Positions 45,575 through 63,470 of a stretch of 64,000 nt of DNA are shown here, piece after piece. The DNA is from an uncultured bacterium. GTDB lineage: Bacteria > Omnitrophota > Omnitrophia > Omnitrophales > Aquincolibacteriaceae. Location: contig CAZSFZ010000003.1 in the NCBI GenBank assembly GCA_964606385.1, forward strand, positions 111,615-175,614, in the 5' to 3' direction. Numbering within the stretch: position 1 is the first letter of the stretch; each line of letters begins with the position of its first letter. Position numbers and translations under genes: made by a program. Below the pieces are notes generated by a model that saw only the letters and a program-made list of their open reading frames with translations, ran no database searches and was not told the origin of the DNA.

Positions 45575-45585
45575 GTGCCCCACAA

Positions 45586-47738: not shown

Positions 47739-47747
47739 ATCGGCCTC

Positions 47748-48185
47748 TTAAGACGACTCCCGGTCCCTTGAAAGGTTCAACATTTGCGATTTTATTTCCT
47801 GGGTATCGCAACAGACCTGGTCCAGATGGTCGCGCATGAGTTCCGTAAAATTCCGGATCGCTTCCAGATCGTGGGCCATGCGTTCGCTGGTAACATGGGA
47901 CTGCCGCAGTGATTGTTGTATGCTGTGCATTTGAGCTTCACGGGCGCTTTCCGAAATAATCTTGGACTCAAAAAGAAGCTGTCCTATGTTCGCGAGCATC
48001 CGAACCACGGCGGCCACAATCCAGCAGATGATCATGAACGTGGTCGCTTGAAGGACCCAGTTTGGCTTCCGCGCATGAAAAAAAATCGCCTGCGCTCCCA
48101 CGACGCTCCCTACGATCGCGATGACCCAGGAAAAAGCCAACAGAATGACGCTGTTCAGCATCGGCCTTTTCTTAAATGGTAACAT
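47748..48185 (-). CDS. small membrane protein (2 TM) with a coiled-coil tail
   Basis: 145 aa. Strong AAGGAGGTT RBS. A G10 homopolymer tract sits 28 nt upstream of the ATG. Confidence 0.5.
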   Translation of the reverse strand: MLPFKKRPMLNSVILLAFSWVIAIVGSVVGAQAIFFHARKPNWVLQATTFMIICWIVAAVVRMLANIGQLLFESKIISESAREAQMHSIQQSLRQSHVTSERMAHDLEAIRNFTELMRDHLDQVCCDTQEIKSQMLNLSRDRESS

Positions 48186-48212
48186 GGTATAACCTCCTTC
48201 GTTAACACCCTC

Positions 48213-48222
48213 CCCCCCCCCG
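48213..48222. repeat. poly(C) on the plus strand, i.e. a G10 homopolymer tract on the coding (minus) strand
   Basis: ccctCCCCCCCCCCgg between the radical-SAM paralog at 48291 and the membrane-protein gene at 48185. Confidence 0.8.
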
Positions 48223-48290
48223 GAGGTAAGAACCTTCGGTTGCTCCTTGGGAAAAGGCGCTGCTCTTTTAAACGTTTAAACGAGTGCGGC

Positions 48291-50267
48291 TTATTTTTCC
48301 TTAAATCCTTTCAAAGAGGAACGGCATCCTTCACTTTCAAGAAACTGCTTCAAACTTATCAGTTCGCGATAGTTTTTCTGCCAAGTGTCTTTCTTCCCCG
48401 GCCCAAATGCAAGGGTCCCGTCGCTTTCGATCATGATCGAAAAAGGACCCCCGTTTTGGGGGCCGCTCAAATTTCCCGCTTCGTCCTCGGTAAAAACACC
48501 AAAATCAGAAAAGTCGGGATTAGGGTCGAAGCGAAAGCGGTCTATGTTAGATTTGATCTTCAGATCATCAAACTTTTTTCTCATGAGCGGTCTATCTTTT
48601 AAAAATCCTTCTTGCTGCTCCGGAGAGAACCCGCGGGATTCTTCGGGCGAAAGAAAGAAAAATCCGTTCAACTTGAATTCCGCCAAAAGGCCGAAAAGCC
48701 TGGAGAGGCCGCCGTCTTGCATTCCGACGGGCGGCGATAAAATATCGATGAGAGGATGGTCGGCGTGATACACCCCCTTATATTTTTCTGAGGCTCTCAA
48801 GATCCTGAGCGCGCGTTCTTGTTGCGATCCGAGAGTCAGATCAAGACGGACGCCCAAGCGGCTGATCAAACCGTCTCCCGTCAAACGTTCCAAGTTCGCC
48901 TCATTCAGCCGAAAAACGCCGGCCATTACGCTAATGAATAGGTCCTCATTTTTCAATGCTTCTAAGAAATAAAACAGCTTTTCCTTGTAAAAAAAAGGGT
49001 CACCATTCCCGCCGATGTAGATCTCCCGGATCTCAAGCTCGCGGATGTCCTTCACTAGCTTATCGATCAGATCCCTATGCCTAAAAAAATCTTCGTGGGG
49101 GCTAAAACTACACGCATGACCACCAAGCTCCCCTCGGGCGTCCCCACACGAGCTCACTGAGAGAAAAAGCCTGGGGGGGAATGAACTGGCGCGGGAGTCC
49201 GTAGAGTTTTTTGCTTCTCCCGCTCTTCCTGATTCAATTTCGAGCGGGAACCGCCTTTTGAAGCGATCCCTCCGAAGCGCACGGCCGTAAACTGCTTTTT
49301 TCCCTCCGGCATATCCGGTTTTTGTTTCTACCACAAGACCGGCCAAACAGGGGGATTTGCATCTTTTCACCCGCTCCATCTCCTTAAGGTAAGCTTCCGT
49401 GTTAAATACATCTTCGAAAGGATGTTGATAAAGGGGAAAATCGATCTCCTTGCCGCATATCCAAAGGTTCCCGCGATAATTGATGTTAAAGCTCTGCGTT
49501 CCCATTAGGCACCGGTTGTCGGGAACGATCTCATTCCTAAAATAATCCCAATACCGGTCAATCACAGGTAAAGGGCGGGCAATCTTCATCCGTCTCTTGT
49601 TCTTATGCAAAAAGGACAGGACATCCCTCAGGGAGTTCAGCTGCGCTTCATTTAAGTGGAAACCGTTCCGCAGGTAATAGATCTCATTATTTGTGATGAC
49701 CGGCTGGATGTCCACAGGAACGGCCGGGTACCGTTCCGTCAAAAATTCTAAAAAATCCACAAAACGGCAGACGTTCTCGGGCATCAGGACCGAGGTGAAA
49801 AGGAAAGGCCATTGATAGCTCTGAAGCAGGCGCGCGGCATTCATCACTTTTTGAAAAACACCCTGCCCCCGGATCGCGTCGTTCTCTTTTTCAAGTCCGT
49901 CTACCGAGAGAAGAAAAGTGACCCTGTTTTTATGCGCCAGAACGCTCTCCAAAAATTTTTCATCCAGACAGGTCGTATTGGTCACGATGTGGATGGGAAC
50001 GCCCTTGGAGGCGATTAGAGGGATCAAGCGCGTCAGGTCGGTCGCGCGAGACAGGGGTTCCCCGCCGCCGAAAGCGATCATTCCGATCGGGAAGCGAATG
50101 ATATTGCGGATGACGGATTCCCATTTTTCCACGGACATTTCATGCTCCACGGGCGTCTTGCTGATCGTCGTGGAGCACATGATGCAGCTCAGGCTGCACC
50201 GATCCGTCATCGCGATATAAATATGCTCGATCCTTGCGGGCATGCCCCGGTTCTCGGTCGGGTTCAT
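48291..50267 (-). CDS. radical SAM-domain protein (tandem paralog B) with an extra degenerate radical-SAM-like C-terminal domain
   Basis: N-terminal half (MTDRCSLSCIMCSTT...CKSPCLAGLVVE) is paralogous to the 46680 gene. The C-terminal 330 aa contain SCGDARGELGGHAC and IYIGGNGDPFF, a radical-SAM-like fold lacking the canonical Cys triad. The start is the ATG at 50267 (ATGA overlap). The track extends to 50333. Confidence 0.7.
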   Translation of the reverse strand: MNPTENRGMPARIEHIYIAMTDRCSLSCIMCSTTISKTPVEHEMSVEKWESVIRNIIRFPIGMIAFGGGEPLSRATDLTRLIPLIASKGVPIHIVTNTTCLDEKFLESVLAHKNRVTFLLSVDGLEKENDAIRGQGVFQKVMNAARLLQSYQWPFLFTSVLMPENVCRFVDFLEFLTERYPAVPVDIQPVITNNEIYYLRNGFHLNEAQLNSLRDVLSFLHKNKRRMKIARPLPVIDRYWDYFRNEIVPDNRCLMGTQSFNINYRGNLWICGKEIDFPLYQHPFEDVFNTEAYLKEMERVKRCKSPCLAGLVVETKTGYAGGKKAVYGRALRRDRFKRRFPLEIESGRAGEAKNSTDSRASSFPPRLFLSVSSCGDARGELGGHACSFSPHEDFFRHRDLIDKLVKDIRELEIREIYIGGNGDPFFYKEKLFYFLEALKNEDLFISVMAGVFRLNEANLERLTGDGLISRLGVRLDLTLGSQQERALRILRASEKYKGVYHADHPLIDILSPPVGMQDGGLSRLFGLLAEFKLNGFFFLSPEESRGFSPEQQEGFLKDRPLMRKKFDDLKIKSNIDRFRFDPNPDFSDFGVFTEDEAGNLSGPQNGGPFSIMIESDGTLAFGPGKKDTWQKNYRELISLKQFLESEGCRSSLKGFKEK

Positions 50268-52813
50268 TTTCGTTTCTTGCCTTTCGGGAACGGGAAGAGC
50301 GGCCTCTGATGTCTTTCTCGCAGTACTTTCCATTTGTCAAAAAAGGTCTTGCTGATTGTGGAAAGTTTTTCGGATTCCGGCCGCTCGGAACAGAACTGGG
50401 TGCAATTCGAGCGGCATCGTTTGATCTTTTTGCGCAGTTGCTGCGCTTTTTCCGAGAACCAAAGCTCTTTAAGGCTGCGCTGCTGGATGTTGCCGAGGGA
50501 TTCCATGCAGACAAAACTAACATCGCCGGAGGGCCCGACGAAGATCCGGCTGAAACCGGCAAAGCAGGTATTCACGGTCCGTTTTCTCTCGAAATGCTGC
50601 ACGGTCTTTTCAGCCATAAAATCAATGTGAGGTTCCCCGGGCAAAGCCGCGCGCTTCATTATTTCGAGTTCTTCAAAGACACGGCGCAGCTCCGCGATAT
50701 CAGACGCCTCGAGCAAAAAATCAGATTTGAATACCGAGAAAGACGCAAGATCGCTGTTATCCACGAGAGGCTGGAAGGCGATATAGCAACATTGGGTCCT
50801 GCGGGCGAGCCGGGCCAGGTCAGGAAGTCCCTTAACATTACTTTTCATGATCACGCTGCACATGGCGACATCCAGCCGCCCTTCGGGGTTGTCCTCAAGC
50901 CTTCGTTTGTATTCCTTTTTATAGTGATTGATCCAATTCAAAGCCTGGAGAGCCTTGTCAAAGACTCCTTTGCCCCGGATCGCGTCGTGAATTTCGGGAT
51001 CCGCGCTATCGATCGAAAACGAGAGGCTGCGGAGTTTGGAGCGGACGATTTTTTTCGCAAGCTCTTCGGTGATCAGACTTCCGTTTGTGTTAAGCGTAGT
51101 GACAACACCCGGACGCTGGGCGTAATCGATCAATTCAAAGATATCCGGCCGCAAAAGCGCTTCCCCGCCTGTAAAATAGATATTCTTCGCCCCAAGCGCA
51201 ATGCCCTGGTCGATCACCCGCTTCACTTCTTCGGTAGTCATCTCCCGGTCGTGCTGCTGCTTCCACACGGTGCACATCTTGCAGCGGATGTTGCATTTCG
51301 TGGTCATCATGATCTGGATCATGTCCGGACCCACCAGCACCTTACTGAAAAGACGTGAAAAATAAAAGAGGGCGTTCCGCTTCGTTTCACAAAGCAGCTC
51401 CCAAAAGTCTTTCGCGTAAGGGTCCTCATGTTTTCTTGAATGCCTGTTGCTGGTGATACCGCCTTTGTAGAGCCCGAGGAGCCGCGCGAGCCTCCGAAGG
51501 CCCTTGGCGCGCCATGTCCTTGTGCGGTAATCGTTCTTTTCTTGCGCGATGAACCAATGTCCTTGGGGATCGTATTGGATCTGAAGGTCCTCGGCCTGCT
51601 CATGAAGCGCCGAGTTCTCCGGGATATAACAAGCGCTCACGTTCACGAACTCCTCGATATATTTCCTGTTCTTGAACAGGAACCATGCTGTCCGGAAAAA
51701 ATCCGAGGCGGTCTCTTTGGGATGCCCCACCATCCACAGGGTATTCACTTTGATCCCTGCCTCGTAGGCCCTTTGCATGGTGATCGAAGCTTCTTCGGCG
51801 CTCGGCTTTCCCATGAATTTGAGAATCTTGTCCGAACCGCTTTCGATGCCGAAGGTCAAATACAGACATCCGGCATTCTTGATCTTTTTGAAAAGTCCCG
51901 GTGGCATATCTTTCCGGGCCCTGGCCATGCCTCCCCAGGTAATATTCAGCTTCTCTTGGATCAAAAGATCCGCCAAGCGTTCCAGCCCCTTGAGGTCGCC
52001 GTTCACCAGAAGATCATTGCTCTTAAACCAGGTCCTTCCGTACCGCGCCTTATGCTTTTTGATCTCTTCGACGATATCCTCCGCGGGACGCATCCGGTAA
52101 TTGCCCCAAATGGGTTTGTCGCAACAGAAGCGGCAATGGTAATGACACCCCCGGCTGAAGAGGATCGGCATTTCCGTTTTATTATCGTAAGCGTTCATGT
52201 CAAAGAGGTCGAACGCGGGGAGCGGGATCGTATCGATAGGGATTGTTCCGTGGTTATCGCCGTTATCGACCAAGGTCCCACCCTCCCGAACCACCGTCCC
52301 TTTGATCCCTGTGAGCGGCTCTCTCCGGGCCAACCGTCCCAGGATCTCACTCATGATATTCTCACCTTCTCCCTTGACAAAAATGTCGACATCCGCATTG
52401 CGGGCATCCCGAAGATCCAGTCCCGACGAACAGAAGGGGCCGCCATAAATGATCGGGACCGAAGGGGCGATCTTCTTGAGCTTCCCAGCTAGTAGATTGG
52501 CCATCATGCGCGAATGGGAGTTCACTCCGAAGCCTACGACCTCGGGACCATAAGCCATAACTTCCTGGGCCCAGTGATCGGCAATCCTTTCGATATTAAA
52601 ATGTTTCTTGATCTCTTCCTCGCTCAGCCAAAGATCCGCGTTCGGCCAATCCCAAAGATGCTTTGCGGGGCCACTTTCTGCGTACAGCCTGGAGTTGAAA
52701 CAAAAAACTTTTACATCGTGTTTTTCTTCTCTGACCTTTGCCGCGATGTAAGCAAGACCCAAATGGGGAAAATCCACACCGTAGACAGGAGGAAAAACGA
52801 GGGCGACCTTCAT
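50264..52813 (-). CDS. fusion of a B12-binding (class B) radical SAM with a SPASM-type radical SAM
   Basis: 849 aa. The N-terminus MKVALVFPPVYGVDFPHLGLAYIAAKV is a cobalamin-binding domain followed by the RGCHYHCRFCCD radical-SAM motif. A second domain begins near residue 480 with MMTTKCNIRCKMCTVW, GGEALL and a C-terminal Cys cluster (CFAGFSRIFVGPSGDVSFVC...CRSNCTQFC). Confidence 0.75.
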   Translation of the reverse strand: MKVALVFPPVYGVDFPHLGLAYIAAKVREEKHDVKVFCFNSRLYAESGPAKHLWDWPNADLWLSEEEIKKHFNIERIADHWAQEVMAYGPEVVGFGVNSHSRMMANLLAGKLKKIAPSVPIIYGGPFCSSGLDLRDARNADVDIFVKGEGENIMSEILGRLARREPLTGIKGTVVREGGTLVDNGDNHGTIPIDTIPLPAFDLFDMNAYDNKTEMPILFSRGCHYHCRFCCDKPIWGNYRMRPAEDIVEEIKKHKARYGRTWFKSNDLLVNGDLKGLERLADLLIQEKLNITWGGMARARKDMPPGLFKKIKNAGCLYLTFGIESGSDKILKFMGKPSAEEASITMQRAYEAGIKVNTLWMVGHPKETASDFFRTAWFLFKNRKYIEEFVNVSACYIPENSALHEQAEDLQIQYDPQGHWFIAQEKNDYRTRTWRAKGLRRLARLLGLYKGGITSNRHSRKHEDPYAKDFWELLCETKRNALFYFSRLFSKVLVGPDMIQIMMTTKCNIRCKMCTVWKQQHDREMTTEEVKRVIDQGIALGAKNIYFTGGEALLRPDIFELIDYAQRPGVVTTLNTNGSLITEELAKKIVRSKLRSLSFSIDSADPEIHDAIRGKGVFDKALQALNWINHYKKEYKRRLEDNPEGRLDVAMCSVIMKSNVKGLPDLARLARRTQCCYIAFQPLVDNSDLASFSVFKSDFLLEASDIAELRRVFEELEIMKRAALPGEPHIDFMAEKTVQHFERKRTVNTCFAGFSRIFVGPSGDVSFVCMESLGNIQQRSLKELWFSEKAQQLRKKIKRCRSNCTQFCSERPESEKLSTISKTFFDKWKVLRERHQRPLFPFPKGKKRK

Positions 52814-53871
52814 GGTTGGGCCTTCAGAAATTTACGGAATACGTTTTTCAATGACGCGGACTCCTGACGGGCATGGCAATCCTGAAGGCAGTACTGACGG
52901 CATTGTTTGATCCAGGCCCTCCGTTTCCGGGACGCCGCCGATGTCCAGAGCTTCTTGATGGAAGGGGTTTGGCGAACATTGCCGATGATCTCGCCACACA
53001 TCTGGATGGACCCGTCCGGCAACAGCACGAAGCGGCGGTATCCCGCGAAACACACCCAATCATTTTTACCGACCTCTCTATTAAAGTATTTTTTCAGCAG
53101 ACCGTAGCTCGGGTAATCGAGATGGTATTTGGTCCTTTGTAAAGCGTCGAACTTCCCGAGGATCTTTTCGAACTTTTTAAGACGTTCCCCGGAGATCCAC
53201 AGGCCATGTTTGTCGTCGTCCGAGCTTTGTTTATAAAGCTCCACATTGTTGGCCACGACCGGCGTGATGTATAAGGATTCCGCAGAAAGTTTCTCGGCTA
53301 ACCAAAAATATTCTTCCAGATCCTCGAAATTATAGTTGGAAAGGGTCAAGATCAGGACCTTGATCGGGCTCGATAAAGTTTTAAGACGGTTAAGATGTTC
53401 GATCCCTTTGAGGATCTTGTCGAAGGCGCCTCGCTGCCCGCGGATCGTGTCATGGGTCTCCGCTTTGGCTCCGTCCAAAGAGATCGTGAGAACATCCAGC
53501 TTGGAATCGATCAGTTGCTTCGCCATCCGCTCATCGATCAGCGTCCCGTTCGTCGTCAGGATGACCCGCAATCCGAGATCCTTGGCATGTTTGATAATAT
53601 CAAAACAGACGTCCCGCAGCAGGGGCTCTCCCCCGCATAAATTCACTTCCCGCACACCCCAACGGGCGCATTGATCCATCACGGACCGGATCTCTTCGAA
53701 TGTCAGTTCCTGTGTTTCTTCCGCGCGCTCCCAGACATCGCACATCTTGCACCGGAGATTACAGCGGCTGGTCACGGAGATCTGAAGAGTGTCCGGAGCG
53801 ATCCAGGGATGCCCGGTCTTGCGGGACAACCAAAAACCAAGATCTCTCGTAAGGTCATTCCATCGATTCAC
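52810..53871 (-). CDS. radical SAM/SPASM-domain protein
   Basis: FWLSRKTGHPWIAPDTLQISVTSRCNLRCKMCDVW, CGGEPLL, and a C-terminal CFAGYRRFVLLPDGSIQMCGE...CRQYCLQDC. GTG start with an AAAGGAAA RBS. Confidence 0.75.
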   Translation of the reverse strand: MNRWNDLTRDLGFWLSRKTGHPWIAPDTLQISVTSRCNLRCKMCDVWERAEETQELTFEEIRSVMDQCARWGVREVNLCGGEPLLRDVCFDIIKHAKDLGLRVILTTNGTLIDERMAKQLIDSKLDVLTISLDGAKAETHDTIRGQRGAFDKILKGIEHLNRLKTLSSPIKVLILTLSNYNFEDLEEYFWLAEKLSAESLYITPVVANNVELYKQSSDDDKHGLWISGERLKKFEKILGKFDALQRTKYHLDYPSYGLLKKYFNREVGKNDWVCFAGYRRFVLLPDGSIQMCGEIIGNVRQTPSIKKLWTSAASRKRRAWIKQCRQYCLQDCHARQESASLKNVFRKFLKAQP

Positions 53872-53917: not shown

Positions 53918-55840
53918 CTATTTTGAATCGCAAAAACACGGCAAAAGACACGGCCAGCCGCATTTTTGGGCCTGCTCATTCGCGGCGATTCTTTTAGGGC
54001 TGGTCAGAACCTCTCTGAGGGACTGGACAGCGGCATGCCCATACACCGAGAAACAAGTGGCATATTCACCTTGGTTAGAGATCAGGACGGTCTCCGCGGC
54101 AGAGGCGCAACGGACATCCGCGGAGGATAAATTACCTTCATAATATTTTTCGATCAACCTGAGATTGTCCGCAGAGTTTTTTATAAAATCCGGATGAACG
54201 TTCTTGAATTCGATCAGCTGCCTCAATGCTTCTCCTAAAGCCGGTACTCTTTCCCGCGGAACCCAGTATTTTGATTTTTTACGCTCCGCCATTTTCAGAT
54301 TATTCGGAAGCAGCGCCTGGAATTGCAGCGAATTAGCCCCTAGAGACAACACATATTCGGCCAATGACCGGAGTTCTTCCAGGTTTTGGTTCAGTATGAT
54401 GCTGATAACATTGAAATTGACCTCCGGGCAGTCTTTCTTCAGTCTTGAAAGCAGCGCCAGCCCTTCCCGGGTCCGCTGCCACGCATCAGCGGAGTTCCTG
54501 ATCTCGTTATGAAGCGCGGGCGAAAGGGAATCCAGGGAAACCACCAGAGAAAGAGTCCGTCCGGTCAGGTAAGGCTTCAACCGTTCGAAACGATCCCGGA
54601 TCACGACGCCGTTGCTGAGGACCCCGAGATCCTTGAGTCCGAGCTTTTTTGCGTAATCCAGAATCTCAAAAACGTCTTTCCGCAGCAGGACCTCTCCCCC
54701 GGAAAGAGCGATCTCTTTGATCCCGAGATCGCGGGCCTCTCGCAGCAATTTTTTTGCCGCGGAGGTATCAAGCTCTTCTTGGGTCCCCGCGGTTTTCCAA
54801 ATGTCGCAAATATTGCACCGAAGATTGCAGGCATGGGTCAGGTCCAGAATGAGAAGACGCGGCAACAGCATTTCTCCCAGAAGAAATGTTTCCTTGCCGC
54901 TCCGGATCCTGAAAAACTCCGTAACGTTGCCGCACAGATAAGCGATCTTATGAAGCGCAAAACAACCGGCTACCGCTGTTTTTTTCCAAAAATTTTTAAT
55001 GGAATATTCGCGTGTCAGTTTTTTGCCGAGCAGGTAACAAAATCTGGGGATCTTGAGAACATTGACGATCGTGGCCGCCCAGAATGAACCCGGGCCCGTC
55101 TTCAGTTCTTGAAGCAGGACATGGCTCGGATGCAGGTGCTTGACCAGCAGGTTCCCCCTCCCGTAGATGTACGCTTGTTTTGCCAGGCTGGATAGGGATG
55201 GATCGCGATAATGAACCACCTTGATATCCTTGTCCCAAAAGGAACGGCAGCCGGCCTGGAAGATCCGCCAGAAAAATTCAAGGTCTTCTCCCCCGGGCAA
55301 AGGGAATTTTTCATCAAAAACATGCCGCAAAAAAAGAGACTTTTTGCAAGAAACATTACAGGTCGGAAAAAAGATCAGCTCGCTCTTTCCGGCTATGTCT
55401 ACCTCGATGCTGCAGGTGCTCAGGAACTGACCGACGATCACAGAGGCTTTTTGAACAGCTGTTAAGGTGGCGCCGCCGACGGCGACAAGGTCGGGGTGCG
55501 TCCTGTGGTCTTGGACCATCCGGGCCAACCAATCCGGATAAGCTTCGCAATCGTCATCGATAAAGGCGACGATATCCCCTCCAGCCAAACGGACTCCCCA
55601 ATTCCGGGCTGCGGCAGGGCCTTGATTTTCTTGGCGGAAGATCCGGACGGCCGGAAGGGATGCGTTGCGAGAATCCCGACAAAGCTCCTCCAAGCCTTCC
55701 AGCTTTTCTTTCGAGCCGTCATCAATGATGATGACCTCGAACCGGTCCTTGGGATAATCCTGCTTGATCAAGGAACGCACGCATTTCGCAAGGCCCTCTT
55801 TGCGGTTAAAGGTCGGCACCACAACAGAAATATCGATCAT
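53918..55840 (-). CDS. fusion of a family-2 glycosyltransferase (N-terminal) with a radical SAM/SPASM domain (C-terminal)
   Basis: 640 aa. N-terminus MIDISVVVPTFNRKEGLAKCVRSLIKQDYPKDRFEVIIIDDGS with a DDD/DxD GT-A fold. From about residue 320, LTHACNLRCNICDIW, SGGEVLL, and a C-terminal CASAAETVLISNQGEYATCFS...CGWPCLLPCFC. Confidence 0.75.
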   Translation of the reverse strand: MIDISVVVPTFNRKEGLAKCVRSLIKQDYPKDRFEVIIIDDGSKEKLEGLEELCRDSRNASLPAVRIFRQENQGPAAARNWGVRLAGGDIVAFIDDDCEAYPDWLARMVQDHRTHPDLVAVGGATLTAVQKASVIVGQFLSTCSIEVDIAGKSELIFFPTCNVSCKKSLFLRHVFDEKFPLPGGEDLEFFWRIFQAGCRSFWDKDIKVVHYRDPSLSSLAKQAYIYGRGNLLVKHLHPSHVLLQELKTGPGSFWAATIVNVLKIPRFCYLLGKKLTREYSIKNFWKKTAVAGCFALHKIAYLCGNVTEFFRIRSGKETFLLGEMLLPRLLILDLTHACNLRCNICDIWKTAGTQEELDTSAAKKLLREARDLGIKEIALSGGEVLLRKDVFEILDYAKKLGLKDLGVLSNGVVIRDRFERLKPYLTGRTLSLVVSLDSLSPALHNEIRNSADAWQRTREGLALLSRLKKDCPEVNFNVISIILNQNLEELRSLAEYVLSLGANSLQFQALLPNNLKMAERKKSKYWVPRERVPALGEALRQLIEFKNVHPDFIKNSADNLRLIEKYYEGNLSSADVRCASAAETVLISNQGEYATCFSVYGHAAVQSLREVLTSPKRIAANEQAQKCGWPCLLPCFCDSK

Positions 55841-55845
55841 GACCG

Positions 55846-56622
55846 TCAGGTTTTTTTCATAATATTAGGTTTAAGCTTCAAAAAGAGTCCCCACCCGGCC
55901 AGCAGTGTGATCGCGGCGATAAGGGAGGTCGTCAACAATTCATTCCAAAGGACCCGATCTTCGAATAGCACGCCTCGGAAAAAAGCGATCATTGGCGTCA
56001 TGGGATTGATGTTACATATCCATTGATAGTTTTGAGGGACCATATCCACGGAATAAAAAACGGGCGTGATCCAGAACCAAAACATAAGAAACACGGACAA
56101 AAGCTGGCCAATGTCGCGAAAATAAACATTCAAGATCGAAATGATAAGGCCCGCCCCGGAAACAAACAAAAGGATAAGGGCGAATCCCACGATCAGGAGA
56201 GGAAACAAAGCAATAATCTGGGGCCTGAACCATAAAAAAAGAGGATAGATAAAAATCCATCCGATGAGAAAGTTCAAAAAATTCCCCAGGACAGATGCTA
56301 GCGGGATGATCTCGGCCGGCAGATTGAACTGTCTGAGAACGTTTTTCTGGTTCAAGATGGAAAAAGCCGCTTCGGAAACCGCGTTTGAAAAAAAGAACCA
56401 GGGATAAATGCCGGCCAAAACGAACATAGAAAAATCCTTGATGCCGGTCTTAAAAACGCAGACAAAGACGAAGCTGACCGCCAGCATAATGAGTACGGGG
56501 TTAATGACGGCCCACGCCACGCCTAAAAGCGATCGGGAATATTTATTTTTGAGTTGGCCGACGGCCATCCTCCAGACCGCTTCCCGGAAAGAGAACAGTT
56601 CTTTAAGTCTTCCGCATTTCAT
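55846..56622 (-). CDS. wzm: ABC-2 type polysaccharide export permease
   Basis: 258 aa with six hydrophobic segments. The N-terminal region (AVGQLKNKYSRSLLGVAWAVINPVLIMLAVSFVF) is typical of Wzm/TagG/KpsM. Confidence 0.8.
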   Translation of the reverse strand: MKCGRLKELFSFREAVWRMAVGQLKNKYSRSLLGVAWAVINPVLIMLAVSFVFVCVFKTGIKDFSMFVLAGIYPWFFFSNAVSEAAFSILNQKNVLRQFNLPAEIIPLASVLGNFLNFLIGWIFIYPLFLWFRPQIIALFPLLIVGFALILLFVSGAGLIISILNVYFRDIGQLLSVFLMFWFWITPVFYSVDMVPQNYQWICNINPMTPMIAFFRGVLFEDRVLWNELLTTSLIAAITLLAGWGLFLKLKPNIMKKT

Positions 56623-56712: not shown

Positions 56713-57828
56713 TTATGCCAACTCCTTCAAAAGTTTTCGGATGTTGTGTTGATAAGTTTCAAACTGAAAAACCCCTGGAATCAAAGGTGTGGCTGCGGAC
56801 CGCTTCCCGGCCATGATCTCATCTTCGATCGAAGCTGGCGATAAATCTTTGCAGTGCCTCTCTTGAAAATAGTCCAAGATCTCTGCCGATCCCGGATTCA
56901 TCGTGATGAGGATCCTTTGAGAGAGCACGAGCGCTTCCAGAAACGCCAATCCGAACGGTTCATTCCTCCGAAACGGAAAGACACAAACATCGACCTTCTT
57001 GAGAATTCCTGCTACATGGGTCTGAAGCCCGCAAAAAAAGACCACGGATTCCATGCTGTTTTCACGAAGGTACCGTTCTATTTTCTTTTTGTATGCTTTA
57101 GCGCGCCAGTCGCAGGGAGCGACATCTCCCACGATAAGAAGTGCGAATTTACGAGGAACTGTTTTGCCGACCTCATGCATCATCCGCACCAGCTCGAGCT
57201 GTCCCTTGGAAGGATGAATCCTTGCAACCACCGCAAAAATGACCGCATCGGGAGGCAAAGAAGGCTGCTCCTCTTCGAAAGGTGACAGGTCCATAGGTGC
57301 CGGGGAGACCATTCCCTCATAAATGATGGGGATGGCCTTCCGTTTCTCCGTCGAAAAAAGAACATCCCGTATGTTGCGAGACATGCAAACCACGGTCGAT
57401 CGCGTCGCCTGCGCTATCCCGATAAGCATGCGATTCACGCCGCGAGAGGGGAAAAATTCCCGCAAGTGCCAGATGTGTTTTTTCCGCGTGAATGAGGCCA
57501 CCAAGGATGGGAAGACAAGCAACAAGTTGTTCGTATAAAGCAGGTCGATCTTTTTTAAAAGAACGTATCCGGTAAAAAAAACCATATCGAGCAAAAACAA
57601 GACCGGAGCGAGCAGATAATAAATCGGAGACCATGAGAAGGTTAAAATGCTCAGAGGAAAAACGAAGATAGAAACATTCTTTCTTTTCAGCATTTTTTGG
57701 AGCGGGCCCTGTCGCGGAACCACCACGGTGATCTCATACTCACCCCGGATCGCTTCGATCAGATTAAGAAGTCCACGCTCCGAGCCATAAAGCTCGCTCC
57801 CCGAACTAAAAATAAGTATTTTTTTCAT
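56713..57828 (-). CDS. family-1 (GT4-like) glycosyltransferase
   Basis: Rossmann-like GT-B layout with EX7E-like segments (FGLAFLEALVLSQRILITMNPGSAEI). The ATG at 57828 (MKKILIFSSGSELYGSERG) is preferred, in an ATGA overlap with the upstream GT2. The track starts at 57888. Confidence 0.65.
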   Translation of the reverse strand: MKKILIFSSGSELYGSERGLLNLIEAIRGEYEITVVVPRQGPLQKMLKRKNVSIFVFPLSILTFSWSPIYYLLAPVLFLLDMVFFTGYVLLKKIDLLYTNNLLLVFPSLVASFTRKKHIWHLREFFPSRGVNRMLIGIAQATRSTVVCMSRNIRDVLFSTEKRKAIPIIYEGMVSPAPMDLSPFEEEQPSLPPDAVIFAVVARIHPSKGQLELVRMMHEVGKTVPRKFALLIVGDVAPCDWRAKAYKKKIERYLRENSMESVVFFCGLQTHVAGILKKVDVCVFPFRRNEPFGLAFLEALVLSQRILITMNPGSAEILDYFQERHCKDLSPASIEDEIMAGKRSAATPLIPGVFQFETYQHNIRKLLKELA

Positions 57829-58682
57829 CTTCGGAACTTCCGCGAGACGTCGTGCCACGCTTGCTTCGCATGAGGATTTGTCAGGCAAAAATGAAGTATC
57901 CGCGGAATGTCATAAAAAAAACTCCTGAGAAAGAACCGGCTTAAGTTCGTTTCATTTTTGGCAATAATATAAAACCGGTTCCGAAAGCTGTAAAAACGCC
58001 GTTTTTGCGGATCGATCGGAGCGCTTCCCCCTTGATGAACACAACACAGTTGCGGGTCGAACAAAAACTTGTACCCCTTTTTTGTAAGGCGTAAGGAAAG
58101 ATCCGTATCTTCGAACAAAAAGAAGAAATCTTCGTCAAAATACATTCCTTTTCCCCGAACCTCATCGAGACACGACCGCCGAAGCGCAGCGCAACAGCTA
58201 TTAAAACCGTTCACTTCAAATGGCGCCGAGGCCGTCGAAGCGGCTTTTCCCTTCAAAACATCGTGAGACCGATAAAGGGGAGTGATCTTCAACCCGCAAG
58301 AAAACAGCTCGCCTGTATTTGCTTGAGATATTTTGGCGGTCAGCCCGGCATAGCACGGACTCAAAGAGGCCAGAGATCGCTCGAGAGCGTCGAAAAAGCC
58401 TGCTTCCAAAAAAGCGTCGGCATCAAGGAACACGATAAACCGGCCTTGGGACGCGCGTATGCCTTGATTCCGAGCCGAAGCGCTCCCTAAATTTTTTTCA
58501 TTGCGGATCAGCTTCACGCTGGGATAATTATTTAAAATAAGGTCAGGCGTTTCGTCGGAAGATCCATTATCCACAACAAACACTTCGTAATCCCGATGCC
58601 CTTGGGACATGACAGACTCAAGACAGCGACGAATAAACATTGCGCTGTTAAAAGTGGGAATGATGAAAGAGAGAAGTTTCAT
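57825..58682 (-). CDS. family-2 glycosyltransferase
   Basis: MKLLSFIIPTFNSAMFIRRCLESVMSQGHRDYEVFVVDNGS...LDADAF GT-A motifs. Confidence 0.8.
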   Translation of the reverse strand: MKLLSFIIPTFNSAMFIRRCLESVMSQGHRDYEVFVVDNGSSDETPDLILNNYPSVKLIRNEKNLGSASARNQGIRASQGRFIVFLDADAFLEAGFFDALERSLASLSPCYAGLTAKISQANTGELFSCGLKITPLYRSHDVLKGKAASTASAPFEVNGFNSCCAALRRSCLDEVRGKGMYFDEDFFFLFEDTDLSLRLTKKGYKFLFDPQLCCVHQGGSAPIDPQKRRFYSFRNRFYIIAKNETNLSRFFLRSFFYDIPRILHFCLTNPHAKQAWHDVSRKFRR

Positions 58683-58740
58683 TTCAGCATATTTTCGACA
58701 AAGAAAAATAAAACCCTGTTAGACGGCGGTTCGGGTCGGG

Positions 58741-59520
58741 TCAGATCAATGAAGCGCTTTGAGCTTTCCCAAGCCTGGACATGCCCTGAAGCGCCGACTT
58801 ATTCTTTGGATTAAAGGTCAGAGCTTTCGCAAACCATGTTTTTGCTCTTCTGGGGTCCTTTCGCCGTATTTCAAGCCAGCCCATTTCGGCAAGAACCTGG
58901 TCATTTTTAGCATTCATCCGTAAAACATAGGAGAAAAGGCCCTCAGCGTCGTTCAGCCTGCCTTGCTGAGCATAAATAATTCCCAATTGGGTCGCCACAT
59001 CCTGATCCTTGGGGTTTGAAGCTAACTTTTTTTTATATTCTTCCGCAAGAGCCTGCCTTACACCGGCTTTGGCTTCTTCGTTCTGGGCGTCAAGAGAAAG
59101 CGCTTTTTGAAAATATTGCCGGGCCCTGACAAAATCCCCCTGCCCTAAAAAAATATTTCCAGCCTCAACATAAATTTCATCGTTATTCGGATCCTCAGTG
59201 ATTGCTTTTGCTAATATTTTTTTAGCCAGGCTTTTTTTGCCCTGAGCCCGATAAAGCTTTGCCCATAAAAGCCTGGCTTGGATGCTCTGAGGATTGATTT
59301 CCCAAGCTTCTTTTAAGAGTTTTTCTGTTTGCGCATAATCCTTTTTAGCAAGATGAAGCGACGCCTGATTCAGGAGATCGTTCTCTGTCAAAGGTTGCTT
59401 GGGTTGGTGCCTTTCATAAGAGGCATCCGCTTCAACCAGAGCGGTCTCCGCCGACGCGCGGCCGGAGATACCCGAAACAACGAGGAGGATCAAGATGCTT
59501 AAAAATGTTCTATGGCGCAT
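58741..59520 (-). CDS. secreted TPR-repeat protein
   Basis: Signal peptide MRHRTFLSILILLVVSGISGRASA, with the ATG at 59520 preferred. The track ORF extends to 59586. Six or more TPR units. Confidence 0.6.
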   Translation of the reverse strand: MRHRTFLSILILLVVSGISGRASAETALVEADASYERHQPKQPLTENDLLNQASLHLAKKDYAQTEKLLKEAWEINPQSIQARLLWAKLYRAQGKKSLAKKILAKAITEDPNNDEIYVEAGNIFLGQGDFVRARQYFQKALSLDAQNEEAKAGVRQALAEEYKKKLASNPKDQDVATQLGIIYAQQGRLNDAEGLFSYVLRMNAKNDQVLAEMGWLEIRRKDPRRAKTWFAKALTFNPKNKSALQGMSRLGKAQSASLI

Positions 59521-59607
59521 GCCCTGTCTTTCCGTGTGAAGGAGACGTTTTTTGTTTTCCGCAGTGAGTATGCCTCTTGGACCCAAAACCTCTCGTCTCG
59601 ACGTATT

Positions 59608-60747
59608 TTACCCTTCTTCATCCTGCCCAAATAGGTCTATTTTTTCCATTTGCTCAGCAAGCTCGACAAATTCACCTCTCTCGGAACACAGCTGGAGACA
59701 AGGCGTTTGACATTTTTTTATCATTTTCCGATATTGATTAGCCTGCTTGGAATACCAGAGTTCCCTTAGAGAGGATTGTCTTATGTCACCAAAAACCGCT
59801 TTGTGTTGGTTTTCGTTCACGCAAAAATAGATCTTCCCCTCCTGGGTGATTTGAAGCCGGTTATAGCCCGCATAACACGGAAGCTTCTTGGGATCCAGAC
59901 ATCCTCTGAAATATTTTTTCATCCATTCCAGCCGTTTCACGCTGTTGCCAAGAAAATCATAATCGGAGGGAGAGCTTTTTTTGCGAGCGATCAATCCGTC
60001 GATAGCATGGTCCAACACATCCAAACGTTCCGGAGGGATCGCCCCGGTAAAATTCTTTTCCCGTTGCGCCTGGTTCACATTGCAAGCGACCACGGGCTGA
60101 AAAAGAAGCTTCTCCGCCCGCAGGTCCCTGCAGAGATCAACCAGGCTTACAAGCTCTTCGAGGTTATCGTTCATCACGGTACAGACAATCACTATTTTCG
60201 GAAATTCGCCGCCTCTTTCTTTTTTGATCTCATTTATAGCATGAATATTCTGCAGAATGGTTTTCAGGATGTTCTGCCCCCGAATATTTTGAAAAGTTTT
60301 TTCTGTGGCGGCGTCGATGGAAATACTCAGCCATTTCACACCGGAATCAAAACACGCCCTGACATTTCTTTCATTCATTAAGACCCCATTGGTGATCAAA
60401 ACGGTGTTCAGACCAAAACTTTGAGCATATCGCACCAATTCAAAAATATCCTCACGCATAAACGGTTCCCCGCCAAGAAAAATAATATCGCGCGTCCCAA
60501 GCTCGCACGTCTCCCGGATCACTTTTTTACAAAGTTCCGTGCTGATCTCGACCTCCCTGTTCTCCTTTTTGTGGATCTCCATCTGCTTGTGCATATCACA
60601 CATTTTGCATCTTAAATTACATTGGAAGGTGAAATTCATTTGAACAAAATCGGGCGGGAGTAATGGAAAATTGGCCTGACGCGAAGCCCAAAATAAAGCA
60701 TTCCGTCCCAAAAGCCACTCTGATTTCTCTTTTTTTCCTGAAATCAT
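59608..60747 (-). CDS. radical SAM/SPASM-domain protein
   Basis: MNFTFQCNLRCKMCDMH, LGGEPFM, and a C-terminal CYAGYNRLQITQEGKIYFCVN...CQTPCLQLC. Confidence 0.75.
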   Translation of the reverse strand: MISGKKEKSEWLLGRNALFWASRQANFPLLPPDFVQMNFTFQCNLRCKMCDMHKQMEIHKKENREVEISTELCKKVIRETCELGTRDIIFLGGEPFMREDIFELVRYAQSFGLNTVLITNGVLMNERNVRACFDSGVKWLSISIDAATEKTFQNIRGQNILKTILQNIHAINEIKKERGGEFPKIVIVCTVMNDNLEELVSLVDLCRDLRAEKLLFQPVVACNVNQAQREKNFTGAIPPERLDVLDHAIDGLIARKKSSPSDYDFLGNSVKRLEWMKKYFRGCLDPKKLPCYAGYNRLQITQEGKIYFCVNENQHKAVFGDIRQSSLRELWYSKQANQYRKMIKKCQTPCLQLCSERGEFVELAEQMEKIDLFGQDEEG

Positions 60748-63470
60748 CCGGCATCCTTTCCAAGGCTGATTTTGATATCACAAAAACAGTAACGCCCCGG
60801 CCAAAGAATTCCCTTTTCCGGTTCCGCGCTGAGTTTCAAAAGACGTCCGCGATGGCAAATATCAGAGTTCATGATGTTCCAGATCGCCCGCATGTCCACA
60901 CCCCCTTCAGGGGTGAACCGGATCTCCGGCAGCTGGGCGGTCCCGGAAGAGGCTCGAATTTCTTTTAAGCCTCCCGCCCCCTCCAAAAACCCATCGCTGC
61001 TCCAGATCACGGGCCACTCATCGGGTTTTTCTTCAAAAGGCGGCATGTCCGCTTCAAAACCGTTACCGGTCCATTTATTATAAAGCTCCGAAAGCATGAT
61101 GTTGGTTTGAAGTTGTTCGAGGCATACCTTTTCTATGACCTCCAACTCCGCTTTCCAGATGATCGTGTCGCGTCCCTCAAAGGAAACCCGGCATTTTTGT
61201 AAAACCGGCAGCGATCGCCACTCACCCGAGAACAGGACTTCTTCCTCCGATTGAGCCGTAACCCACTTTGCATCAAGATAAGAGTTCAGCCAACGCCCTT
61301 GATATCTCAGCGACGTACAAAGCCCCATTTTTTTGGTTATTTCCCGTCCCTGGAAAAACAATTTACCCCCTCCTTGAAAAAAAACAAAACTTACGGGATC
61401 ACGCTTAAAGACCCGTTCCGAACCTTCTCCCAAAATTGACGGGGCGATCGCTCCGACAACCTCGAAACAATCATGGTGACCGGGGCCGAACCGGGTTTCA
61501 CGTTCCGGCTCAACCCTTCCGACGCGAAGATCGCGCGCCCTGAAAGATAAATCCGTATTGAAAATTTTCATGTAGGTGTTCTGATTTCGAGAGATTTCTT
61601 TCAAGGAAAAACCCGGCATTTTATCGTCTGATGCCTTTAAGGCGATCTCGCCTCCAACGACGCTTTTCTGAAGAATATCGACTTCATGCTCCTGAAAATG
61701 TTCGGCGAAAAAACCTCCGCCCCATGGACTATCGTAGAGATCATAAGCCTCAGAAAACATAAGCCGGAGATATTGTTCGCCGATGTCGACTTCTTTTTTG
61801 AGTTCCAATGCCACCCGCCACGAAAAAGAATTATTTTCTTTTAATTCCAAGGTCCAGATCTGCGTGATCCCGCTGTCCGGGAAAACCCCGCGCGCGATTA
61901 GTTTGTTCTCGTGGTCTTTGCGGCAGCTCCATGAGGCCCATTCGGAAGAATAGCAAACGTTATCGACCCAAAACATACTGACAAAGTTCCTGGATTTCGT
62001 CAGTCTCGTTTCTTTAAAAAACAGCACCCATTGCCCCTTATGAAATAGAAATTTTAAATCCCCCCGAGCTAAGCCGTAATGATCGGCCAGCTGACGGGTG
62101 TATTCTTTGATGTCGGAGCGCGCGATCGCGATCTTTCCAAAAAAATTCAGCGCTCCGCGATTTTGGTCTGGATCCTCGCTGGGGATTTTCTTCTCCCGAT
62201 ACTCTATCGTTCTTGCGTGAGCGAAATAATCCGTATTCAACAGTTTGATCTTGCTGGAAGCGGAGGGTTCTATCTGCTCGATCACGATGGGAGGAGCGGA
62301 ACCATCATCCTTTCCCATCAGCCCCACAAAAACAGGCGGTAAATCGTCCCCGGCTACATCGTTCCACTCCGTCTGGCTTTCCGGAATGTCCGGAAACTTT
62401 CCGTTTTTAATGAGCGTCAGCCACTGTTGATAATCGGAAGACCATAATGCGGTAACACACCTCTCTTCCACATCCTTCAACCCTTTACCTTCAAAGCGCA
62501 TACTGAAAACGACTTGTCCGTCCCGGAGCAATTGTATGTTCCATATTTGTTTTAGATCGAGGCGATAAAAATCACCTTCGGCCGAAATAGTGTCGTCCCG
62601 CTGTTCAACCCGCCAGCTAGCTTCAGAGGGCTGATACCATCTCCCTTGGGCGAAGAAACGGGCAAAGATCCCGGGTTGAGGCGTGATAAGCTGTCCGTTC
62701 CAATTTAAAAGCAATCGCCCCTGGTTAAAGATGATTTTGAGGGCTTCCTTTTGCAAAACTCCAACTTCCTGCCCAGTTCCTGCGGTTTGGATATAAAGAG
62801 AAAGTGATTCGTGGACAGAGCTATCACTGATTATTCTTCCGCCCTTCAAAAAAAGGGCCCTTCGCGAAAGCTTTTTCAACAAGCTCATATCGTGAGTTGC
62901 AAAAACGATCGTTTTCTTATTTTCTTTTAGTTCGAAGATCTTTTTTAAACATTTGTTCTGAAAATACTCGTCGCCCACTGAAAGCGTGTCGTCAATAACA
63001 AGCACGTCTGGATCCATATGGATCGCGATCGCAAAAGACAATCTGACAAACATGCCTTGAGAATAACAGCTCACGGGCGCGCAGATGAATTTTCCTAAAG
63101 AAGCAAAGTCCTCTATCTGCTGATACACATCATCTATTTTTTTGCGCGAAAGACCGAATAAATTGGCGTTAAGGTAGATGTTCTCCCGCCCGGTGAGGTC
63201 CGCCTGGAACCCGGCTCCAAGGTCCAAAAGACCCGCCGCGCGTCCCGAAACGACCGCCGCGCCGCGGCTCGGCTTCATAATGCCCGCGACGATTTTTAAG
63301 AGCGTGGATTTTCCGGAGCCGTTCTCTCCGATCACGCCCAGCGCTTCTCCTTGCTCCAAGGCAAAGCTAATGCCCCGCAAAGCCCAAAAATTTTCTTTTT
63401 GATGTTTACCTTCTATCGAAAATTCTATCTGGTACATCTCCCACACATCATCGAATTTCACGGCTTCCAT
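60744..63470 (-). CDS. wzt: ABC transporter ATP-binding protein (Wzt-like) with a large C-terminal extension of about 650 aa
   Basis: N-terminal 250 aa carry Walker A GENGSGKSTLLKIVAG, the signature TLSVGDEYF and Walker B VLVIDD. The remaining 650 aa match no domain I recognise. ATGA overlap with the downstream radical SAM. Confidence 0.75.
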   Translation of the reverse strand: MEAVKFDDVWEMYQIEFSIEGKHQKENFWALRGISFALEQGEALGVIGENGSGKSTLLKIVAGIMKPSRGAAVVSGRAAGLLDLGAGFQADLTGRENIYLNANLFGLSRKKIDDVYQQIEDFASLGKFICAPVSCYSQGMFVRLSFAIAIHMDPDVLVIDDTLSVGDEYFQNKCLKKIFELKENKKTIVFATHDMSLLKKLSRRALFLKGGRIISDSSVHESLSLYIQTAGTGQEVGVLQKEALKIIFNQGRLLLNWNGQLITPQPGIFARFFAQGRWYQPSEASWRVEQRDDTISAEGDFYRLDLKQIWNIQLLRDGQVVFSMRFEGKGLKDVEERCVTALWSSDYQQWLTLIKNGKFPDIPESQTEWNDVAGDDLPPVFVGLMGKDDGSAPPIVIEQIEPSASSKIKLLNTDYFAHARTIEYREKKIPSEDPDQNRGALNFFGKIAIARSDIKEYTRQLADHYGLARGDLKFLFHKGQWVLFFKETRLTKSRNFVSMFWVDNVCYSSEWASWSCRKDHENKLIARGVFPDSGITQIWTLELKENNSFSWRVALELKKEVDIGEQYLRLMFSEAYDLYDSPWGGGFFAEHFQEHEVDILQKSVVGGEIALKASDDKMPGFSLKEISRNQNTYMKIFNTDLSFRARDLRVGRVEPERETRFGPGHHDCFEVVGAIAPSILGEGSERVFKRDPVSFVFFQGGGKLFFQGREITKKMGLCTSLRYQGRWLNSYLDAKWVTAQSEEEVLFSGEWRSLPVLQKCRVSFEGRDTIIWKAELEVIEKVCLEQLQTNIMLSELYNKWTGNGFEADMPPFEEKPDEWPVIWSSDGFLEGAGGLKEIRASSGTAQLPEIRFTPEGGVDMRAIWNIMNSDICHRGRLLKLSAEPEKGILWPGRYCFCDIKISLGKDAG

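Follow-up and report, generated by a model that had tools for sequence, protein, structure and literature searches.

A single gene on the minus strand (53918..55840) of the 64,000-nucleotide stretch of Omnitrophota DNA analysed here, referred to below as the window, encodes a 640-aa protein that is a head-to-tail fusion of two complete enzymes, a family 2 glycosyltransferase (GT2) of the GT-A fold and a radical S-adenosylmethionine (SAM) enzyme (rSAM), because both halves align end to end with standalone enzymes. The explanation that we favour, with modest confidence in it as a whole, is that of a cytoplasmic, non-membrane-spanning bifunctional enzyme, the GT2 domain of which adds a sugar to a lipid-linked glycan, while the tethered rSAM domain modifies that sugar by radical chemistry before the glycan is exported by an ABC transporter. 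With a nucleotide sugar as donor, the GT2 domain would glycosylate a glycan intermediate linked to polyprenyl diphosphate. Reductive cleavage of SAM at the [4Fe-4S] cluster bound by the CX3CX2C motif of the rSAM domain would generate a 5'-deoxyadenosyl radical, which would abstract a hydrogen atom from the transferred or a neighbouring sugar, and a divergent SPASM/twitch auxiliary iron-sulphur (Fe-S) site would deal with the electron of the substrate radical. The result would be an oxidative or rearranging change (dehydrogenation, decarboxylation, epimerisation or ring contraction). Paralogous rSAM enzymes, together with B12-binding ones (B12-rSAMs), would process the modified glycan further, and a Wzm permease with a long Wzt ATPase would export it. 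The acceptor, the order of the reactions, their chemistry and the action of both domains on the same sugar are the parts of this scheme that we infer.

The fusion protein and its two enzymes

The open reading frame (ORF) runs uninterrupted from an ATG start codon through 640 codons to its stop, with no internal stop codons; all window features described in this section lie on the minus strand. Its translation contains VVVPTFNRKEGL, IIIDDGS, CNLRCNICDIW and CGWPCLLPCFC, all of which had been quoted in an earlier, sequence-only reading of the same DNA. That reading had described a GT2 joined to a complete SPASM rSAM enzyme. Both enzymes are indeed complete, whereas the cysteine motif of the SPASM region is non-canonical.

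The GT2 half was matched by the Pfam family Glycos_transf_2 (PF00535) at residues 5-123 (6.1e-32, 111.3 bits against a cutoff of 23.3), and PF13641 (GT2_3, residues 4-222) and PF10111 likewise exceeded their cutoffs; a GT2 profile was matched by all 32 family members. The catalytic GT-A core (residues 1-215; 55196..55840) was delimited with PF00535/PF13641, AlphaFold2 (AF2) secondary structure and Foldseek, and the top PDB matches obtained with the last were all GT-A GT2 enzymes at a probability of 1.00 (K4CP, TarP, TarS, RmlT, WrtF and AvpGT). The DxD motif, which is predicted to bind the metal and the NDP-sugar, reads DDD in the translation (D95-D96-D97; 55550..55558). In an alignment of 32 diverse homologues, D41, D95, D97, E185 and D186 were invariant and D96 was present in at least 90%. 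The invariant pair E185-D186 (55283..55288) forms the 'ED' motif, the candidate catalytic base region of an inverting GT2, which is the role that this motif has in GT2 enzymes generally. The core is followed by a highly conserved helical C-terminal extension (residues 216-313; 54902..55195), in which AF2 placed helices at 216-236, 250-262, 264-278 and 284-313, and which is specific to the GT2-linker-rSAM architecture of the fusion. An EpsD-type standalone GT2 model aligned with the N-terminal 305 residues (positions 1-305 of 325, 1.2e-40). Matches were also obtained to K4CP (5e-43), GalT1, TarS/TarP and an enzyme named PglI, while the polyprenyl-phosphate GT2s matched more weakly than K4CP (DPMS 4.6e-12, GtrB-like 3e-9, ArnC 4e-8). 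Judged by these matches, the GT2 half resembles complete standalone GT2s of polysaccharide or lipid-linked-oligosaccharide synthesis.

The second half carries the Pfam Radical_SAM domain (PF04055, residues 334-496, 2.4e-21, 77.1 bits against a cutoff of 29.5) within a predicted core of the partial TIM-barrel type (residues 329-570; 54131..54856). The C-terminal 320 residues aligned end to end with the standalone rSAMs of the locus (25-30% identity over approximately 315-330 residues). The CX3CX2C motif that binds the rSAM [4Fe-4S] cluster is invariant and reads CNLRCNIC (C338/C342/C345; 54806..54829), as is the 'GGE' SAM-binding motif (G381-G382-E383; 54692..54700), and these two motifs, with the partial TIM-barrel fold, place the domain in the radical SAM superfamily. 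In BlsE, the corresponding GGEP motif is essential (PMC3715490). Towards the C-terminus there follows a region of the form C578-X12-G-X4-C596 ... C627-X3-C631-X3-C635-X-C637 (53930..54109), in which C578, C596, C627, C631 and C635 were invariant among the 32 aligned members and C637 was found in at least 90%. Of the SPASM signature, the first half (C-X9-15-G-X4-C) is present as the invariant C578-X12-G591-X4-C596, with hairpin strands predicted in the model. The canonical second half (CX2CX5CX3C...C) is absent from the fusion, which has CX3CX3CXC instead (C627/C631/C635/C637) and ends three residues after C637; the rSAM paralogues of the cluster carry CX3CX3C. Pfam SPASM (PF13186) did not match the fusion at E ≤ 0.1, matched 15 of the 32 family members at E ≤ 0.01, and was found in the in-cluster paralogues that align with the fused rSAM domain over its full length. 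The C-terminal region is accordingly worded here as what its alignment predicts, a divergent SPASM/twitch-type auxiliary Fe-S domain, and its six conserved cysteines are compatible with one fully ligated cluster or two partly ligated ones. In fold comparisons, the rSAM domain scored highest with BlsE (25.1), followed by SkfB (23.3), SuiB (23.2), anSME (20.8), ChlB (20.2), PqqE (20.2), viperin (19.7), DesII (19.6), CteB (19.5), MoaA (19.0), Tes (18.4) and BtrN (15.4). Since peptide maturases scored nearly as high as BlsE, fold alone leaves the choice among peptide, lipid and glycan substrates undecided.

The two enzymes are joined by a linker of approximately 15 residues (residues 314-328; 54857..54901), recognised by low conservation in the A1 consensus and a pLDDT of 68-70. 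Its sequence is variable and its length constant, and the junction is also spanned by a conserved helical segment. AF2 modelled the full-length protein with a mean pLDDT of 88.2 and a pTM of 0.55, and the isolated rSAM domain with values of 88.9 and 0.87, respectively; each domain is therefore well defined in the models, while their mutual orientation is not. The low full-length pTM argues against a fixed inter-domain geometry. No transmembrane segment was found in the fusion protein.

We found the fusion to be genuine. Among 5.8 billion proteins searched, there were more than 120 collinear homologues of full length, mostly of 629-650 aa (coverage 99-100%, identity 45-89%), drawn from NCBI, JGI, ENA and Logan assemblies. 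Those that carry a name are annotated as 'glycosyltransferase [Candidatus Omnitrophota/Omnitrophica bacterium]', and another automatic name in use is 'MoaA/NifB/PqqE/SkfB family radical SAM enzyme/GT2 family glycosyltransferase'. When one genome per species was scanned, 66 loci were recovered from 66 species-level genomes, nearly all of them metagenome-assembled genomes (MAGs) of Omnitrophota; the labels Planctomycetales, Nanoarchaeota, Woesearchaeota, Paceibacterota and Methanosarcinales on some MAGs are probably binning or labelling noise. The sequence-only reading had named a frameshift or an assembly error as what would overturn it. Two adjacent genes might have been joined by a frameshift, the loss of a stop codon or chimeric assembly, and two-gene neighbours of both classes are common in such loci. 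Direct support for such an artefact was not found. Against it stand the collinear homologues of uniform length in many independent assemblies and sources, the occurrence of the gene in 66 species-level genomes, the conserved helical segment and constant-length linker across the junction, and an identical protein on a second, independently assembled contig. We regard an artefactual origin as having practically no chance of being correct.

Fusion of the two enzyme classes is moreover recurrent. A phmmer search with the rSAM domain alone against 1.84 billion representatives clustered at 50% identity gave 49 matches at E ≤ 1e-30, and architectures were scored with local HMMs of both halves on the best 150 representatives. 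These comprised 96 single rSAMs, 35 polypeptides with 2-4 rSAM domains and 18 that also carried a GT2 domain. The latter fell into at least four layouts, namely GT2-linker-rSAM, GT2-rSAM-rSAM (1134-1493 aa), rSAM-rSAM-GT2-rSAM and rSAM-GT2-rSAM; Pfam confirmed the architectures in a sample of ten and in two proteins of locus L003, and the named examples were all from Omnitrophota. Apart from other rSAM domains, the partner that recurs in fusions with this rSAM clade is GT2. In the second fusion type, the GT2 is only approximately 25% identical and the spacer is unrelated, which implies that GT2 and rSAM were joined more than once, or very long ago. Recurrent fusion is considerably stronger evidence of a putative functional link between the GT2 and the rSAM than one fused gene. 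The further claim of the earlier reading, that physical fusion means action on the same substrate, is not established, as a fusion shows a shared pathway or complex and not a shared molecule. No clean split-gene (Rosetta-stone) pair was found; L061 has a standalone orthologue-like rSAM with no adjacent GT2, and the standalone GT2 homologue of L062 lies in a cellulase/LacI context that is unrelated. Three or four rSAM domains of the same clade in tandem were observed in P0215, P0247, P0141, P0165 and other proteins of up to approximately 1430 aa, an assembly-line-like arrangement.

Homologous loci and the candidate substrate

The neighbourhoods of the fusion gene were compared among homologous loci, counts of Wzm, Wzt and rSAM genes being taken from the 29 loci with at least 6 kb of flank on both sides, and counts of PNPT, UGM and GT4 genes from the 34 loci with at least 8 kb upstream. 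A Wzm gene lay within 10 kb of the fusion in 28 of 29 loci, a long Wzt including the C-terminal region of approximately 650 aa in 26, and rSAM paralogues in all 29. Of 34 loci, 22 carried a PF00953 transferase (PNPT) with WecA as best match (7.6e-26), 25 a FAD enzyme with homology to UDP-galactopyranose mutase (UGM; 5.4e-42 to PDB 4dsg) and 22 a GT4. The conserved UGM homologue implies a furanose sugar in the glycan, and the pathway probably uses one. This FAD gene, annotated as an 'amine oxidase' and located upstream of wzm (e.g., 3010-4344 of L072), belongs to the eukaryotic-type UGM group; a function as lipid desaturase was considered for it and rejected, given the match to UGM (5.4e-42). 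The commonest gene order was wzm, wzt, GT2-rSAM, rSAM, with the rSAM most often at +1.5 kb, and the order in the window is rearranged. In full, the usual arrangement has a GT4, the WecA-like initiating transferase and the UGM homologue ahead of wzm, then a Wzt of approximately 908 aa, and several rSAM paralogues behind the GT2-rSAM gene. The annotated neighbourhoods of five diverse homologues showed the same glycan-type gene set, with nucleotide-sugar epimerase/dehydratase genes and a Wzy_C (O-antigen-ligase-like) gene in addition in one of them. A gene of the YdjC family (HpnK-like sugar deacetylase; 20324-21202 of L070) was observed among B12-rSAM genes in 1 of 34 loci. In predicted function, the loci hold the gene set of an ABC-transporter-dependent pathway for a polyprenyl-linked glycan, which is of the glycan type and not of the peptide type. 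The sequence-only reading had held that the rSAM enzymes of the locus modify a glycan rather than a peptide, and its view is supported by the predicted transporter type (Wzm/Wzt), the WecA-like PNPT, the UGM homologue, the GT4, GT2 and GT9 enzymes, GT-C and SGNH/GDSL proteins, as well as by the lack of an RRE/PqqD domain and of a conserved small ORF.

Within a glycan pathway, the rSAM domain could also act before transfer. It would then modify a nucleotide sugar (UDP-hexose, UDP-uronic acid or UDP-Galf), and the fusion would channel an unusual and possibly unstable donor to the GT2. The present data do not separate such donor-side chemistry from tailoring after transfer. With 10 rSAM domains in the window, a polymer tailored step by step is at least as good a fit as the making of a single donor. 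We consider the donor-side variant unlikely. A different product is envisaged if the pathway makes a glycolipid, with the rSAMs modifying a polyprenyl or other lipid, as Tes, Mss, Hbs, Grs and HpnP/R do, and the GT2 attaching the head group. The gene that might have served as a desaturase in such a pathway is the UGM homologue (5.4e-42), and the GT2 half is closer to GT2s of polymer and oligosaccharide synthesis (K4CP, 5e-43) than to DPMS (4.6e-12), GtrB-like enzymes (3e-9) or ArnC (4e-8). The best rSAM of the locus reached 75.6 bits with the Tes model, the cutoff of which is 450, and lipid-synthesis genes were absent from the examined loci. On this evidence, lipid-directed chemistry appears rather improbable.

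Peptide maturation is the best-known role of SPASM/twitch rSAMs, and by fold the fused domain is close to SkfB, SuiB, anSME, PqqE and CteB. The product might accordingly be a glycosylated ribosomally synthesised and post-translationally modified peptide (RiPP) or a protein, cross-linked or oxidised by the rSAM and glycosylated by the GT2, as with MftC/MftF or the GT2-type S-glycosyltransferases of glycocins. The match of the GT2 half to the MftF model (3.7e-40), the export of some RiPPs by ABC-2 transporters or protection against them by such transporters, and a nearby GT-C of the PMT type, a family that includes protein O-mannosyltransferases, all speak for this possibility. The MftF score, however, was 138 bits, far under the cutoff of 280, and both transporter halves best match glycan exporters (TagH and galactan Wzt/Wzm). 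No Pfam match to PqqD or the RiPP recognition element (RRE) was obtained in the fusion or any cluster protein, the rSAMs of the locus included; the segment that precedes the rSAM core of the fusion is the all-helical GT2 extension, and in the standalone paralogues the radical SAM cysteine motif is located within approximately 20-90 residues of the N-terminus. A conserved precursor gene was not detected either, as no family of ORFs of 25-130 aa recurred across 53 loci in a BLAST comparison, a method of limited power for short peptides that was applied to ORFs of at least 25 aa; the sole recurrences were antisense artefacts inside genes truncated at locus ends. The PNPT, UGM, GT4 and GT9 are, in turn, hallmarks of lipid-linked glycan assembly. 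We therefore see very little chance that the substrate is a peptide or protein.

Lipid-linked glycan tailoring by the fused enzyme, which remains our preferred explanation, allows a bolder extension that we put forward only tentatively. Omnitrophota may build a surface glycan or glycoconjugate with sugars reconstructed by about a dozen rSAMs, and the GT2-rSAM proteins may be its 'add-and-remodel' modules. The attached sugar would possibly be related to galactofuranose, and its remodelling could consist of contraction of the ring to give a carbocycle, which has been proposed for HpnJ and Cds, of decarboxylation, or of C-C or ether cross-links between sugars. If true, this would add to the known polysaccharides a new class, tailored by radical chemistry. 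The fused enzyme might also produce the terminal cap that is read by the C-terminal region of approximately 650 aa of the Wzt.

The gene cluster in the window

Every gene from approximately 41.7 kb to the right edge of the window is on the minus strand. From the left, the cluster consists of a GDSL/TPR gene, five rSAM genes, a gene for an 849-aa fusion of a B12-rSAM and a SPASM-type rSAM, a 353-aa rSAM/SPASM gene, the GT2-rSAM gene, a Wzm-like permease gene, a GT4, a GT2, a TPR protein gene, a 379-aa rSAM/SPASM gene and the gene for a 908-aa Wzt-like ATPase, and it holds 10 rSAM domains in all. Neither the fusion nor any of the rSAMs in the locus reached the cutoff of a curated NCBIfam family.

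The Wzm-like ABC-2 permease (55846..56622; Pfam ABC2_membrane) has galactan-export Wzm/RfbD as its best NCBIfam match, and 5 nt separate its stop codon from the downstream ATG of the fusion. Between wzm and wzt (56713..60747), Pfam recognised the GT4, the GT2 (285 aa), the TPR protein and the 379-aa rSAM/SPASM. The long Wzt-like ATPase (60744..63470) consists of a TagH/Wzt-type nucleotide-binding domain and the C-terminal region of approximately 650 aa. The ATPase and the permease both found their best NCBIfam matches in the teichoic-acid exporter TagH and the galactan exporters Wzt/Wzm, all below the curated equivalog cutoffs. For the C-terminal 649 aa of the Wzt, there was no Pfam match at E ≤ 1 and no meaningful sequence match in the PDB, and the region may be a novel glycan-recognition or regulatory domain. 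Beyond the right edge, the same genome continues (1-9364 of L073) with a PMT-type GT-C, two more B12-rSAMs, two TPR proteins and a GT9 of the heptosyltransferase family. A WecA-like PNPT (PF00953) was not found in the window or in the 9.4 kb beyond it, and the gene for the UGM homologue was not found in the window.

Directly downstream of the fusion lies the 353-aa rSAM/SPASM paralogue (52810..53871; Pfam), which is 25% identical to the fused rSAM domain over the full length of the paralogue. It is followed by the 849-aa protein (50264..52813), in which Pfam recognised two Radical_SAM stretches, a B12-binding domain and SPASM; its SPASM-type rSAM part was observed to belong to the same clade as the GT2-fused rSAM domain. 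The five further rSAM genes (470, 374, 365, 352 and 680 aa), identified from Pfam, ORFs and a shared C-terminal cysteine layout, occupy 43257..50333 together with a 145-aa membrane/coiled-coil ORF. By eye, the 352-aa rSAM (46680-47738) and the N-terminal half of the 680-aa rSAM (48291-50333) look like recent tandem duplicates, and the latter has a further C-terminal half of approximately 340 aa with no Pfam match. The 145-aa ORF (47748-48185), located between rSAM genes, begins with hydrophobic segments and ends in a polar tail that is possibly a coiled coil; a homologue was seen in just 3 of 29 loci, and it is no obvious precursor peptide. The longest ORFs overlap by 70-125 nt in two places (43257-44669 with 44543-45667, and 50264-52813 with 48291-50333). 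Gene calls on the identical contig start later (429, 343 and 658 aa versus 470, 374 and 680 aa), making the true start codons of those rSAM genes uncertain. At the left edge of the cluster, Pfam identified a GDSL/SGNH hydrolase with TPR repeats (41756..43231), and similar genes occur in other loci. SGNH/GDSL proteins are often enzymes that handle the O-acyl groups of polysaccharides. The left 41 kb of the window contains housekeeping genes and a giant ORF of 6816 aa (13781-34231, minus strand) with HATPase_c, HD/HD_5, several SAM-methyltransferase domains and NUDIX, which agrees with the 'giant protein' phenotype described for Omnitrophota (bioRxiv 10.64898/2026.06.07.730766).

Novelty and comparison with known systems

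In keeping with the sequence-only reading, which was not aware of a characterised GT2-rSAM fusion, the literature searched yielded neither a characterised glycosyltransferase-rSAM fusion nor a description of this locus type. The architecture is already public in databases under automatic names, and the curated family models claim none of it. What we rate as new is the combination of a Wzm/Wzt glycan pathway with radical SAM tailoring enzymes that are both fused and massively expanded in number. Carbohydrates are established substrates of radical SAM enzymes in a few small-molecule pathways (BtrN, DesII, BlsE and AprD4) and in two cases of lipid head groups (HpnJ and Cds); for polysaccharides or lipid-linked glycans such chemistry is, to our knowledge, essentially undescribed. 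With both steps in one soluble polypeptide, the fused GT2 could in principle make the substrate of the rSAM in situ, and the context of a WecA-like PNPT, a UGM homologue and Wzm/Wzt narrows the candidate substrates. Natural variants are available as GT2-rSAM-rSAM, rSAM-rSAM-GT2-rSAM and tandem arrays of up to four rSAM domains. The system would also be informative about the cell surface in the Omnitrophota, which are widespread, mostly uncultured and in part dependent on hosts. It is also a warning to genome mining that clusters rich in SPASM-type rSAMs are not RiPP clusters by default.

Glycosyl transfer followed by an rSAM reaction has a precedent in blasticidin S biosynthesis, where the CGA synthase BlsD acts before the radical SAM cytosylglucuronate decarboxylase BlsE (PDB 7vob; PMC3715490). 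BlsD and BlsE differ from the fusion in being two separate proteins and in acting on the precursor of a soluble nucleoside antibiotic, not on a lipid-linked glycan. BlsE is 19% identical to the fused rSAM domain, and the six conserved C-terminal cysteines of the fusion are not aligned to BlsE by sequence. None of the rSAMs of the locus reached the NCBIfam BlsE model, with which the neighbouring 353-aa rSAM scored 77 bits against a cutoff of 400. The clearest precedents for a glycosyltransferase and then an rSAM acting on the same lipid-bound sugar are HpnI-HpnK-HpnJ and the calditol synthase Cds. HpnI, a GT2, places a hexosamine on a lipid and the rSAM HpnJ remodels the sugar to a cyclitol ether, while Cds converts a lipid-bound hexose to a carbocycle (PMC13459092). 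These systems differ from the present one in that they consist of separate polypeptides, work on hopanoid or glycerol dialkyl glycerol tetraether (GDGT) lipids and operate without Wzm/Wzt export. HpnJ, furthermore, is an rSAM with a B12-binding domain rather than one of the SPASM/twitch type, and its mechanism is itself still unproven. The YdjC/HpnK-like deacetylase gene found in one homologous locus recalls the HpnI/HpnK/HpnJ logic.

The same two domain classes meet in one pathway in mycofactocin biosynthesis, with MftC as rSAM/SPASM and MftF as GT2. The MftF model matched the GT2 half (3.7e-40, 138 versus a cutoff of 280 bits) and the MftC model the rSAM half (4.4e-14, 52 versus 265 bits). 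MftA and MftB/RRE were not found in the present loci; the mycofactocin proteins are unfused, and their genomic context is different. Compared with the SPASM/twitch dehydrogenases anSME and BtrN, the fusion has CX3CX3CXC at its extreme C-terminus in place of the canonical second SPASM motif (CX2CX5CX3C...C). WbdD of Escherichia coli O9a and WbbB of Klebsiella O12 are chain-terminating multidomain cytoplasmic enzymes encoded beside wzt. The gene position of the fusion is alike in its commonest order (wzm, wzt, GT2-rSAM), and both are multidomain and cytoplasmic; the sequences are unrelated, nothing points to a capping role, and the likeness serves as a lead only.

Counterparts in gene content are the ABC-transporter-dependent pathways for lipid-linked glycans that contain galactofuranose, namely the mycobacterial galactan pathway (WecA, Glf, the GT2-type GlfT1/2 and Wzm-Wzt) and those of the galactan-type O-antigens of Klebsiella. 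The core set that they have in common with the homologous loci comprises a WecA-like PNPT, a UGM homologue, GT2/GT4 enzymes and Wzm/Wzt. We know of no radical SAM enzymes in the mycobacterial or Klebsiella galactan pathways. In contrast, 10-12 rSAM domains are encoded beside the transporter here, and the Wzt has its extra region of approximately 650 aa.

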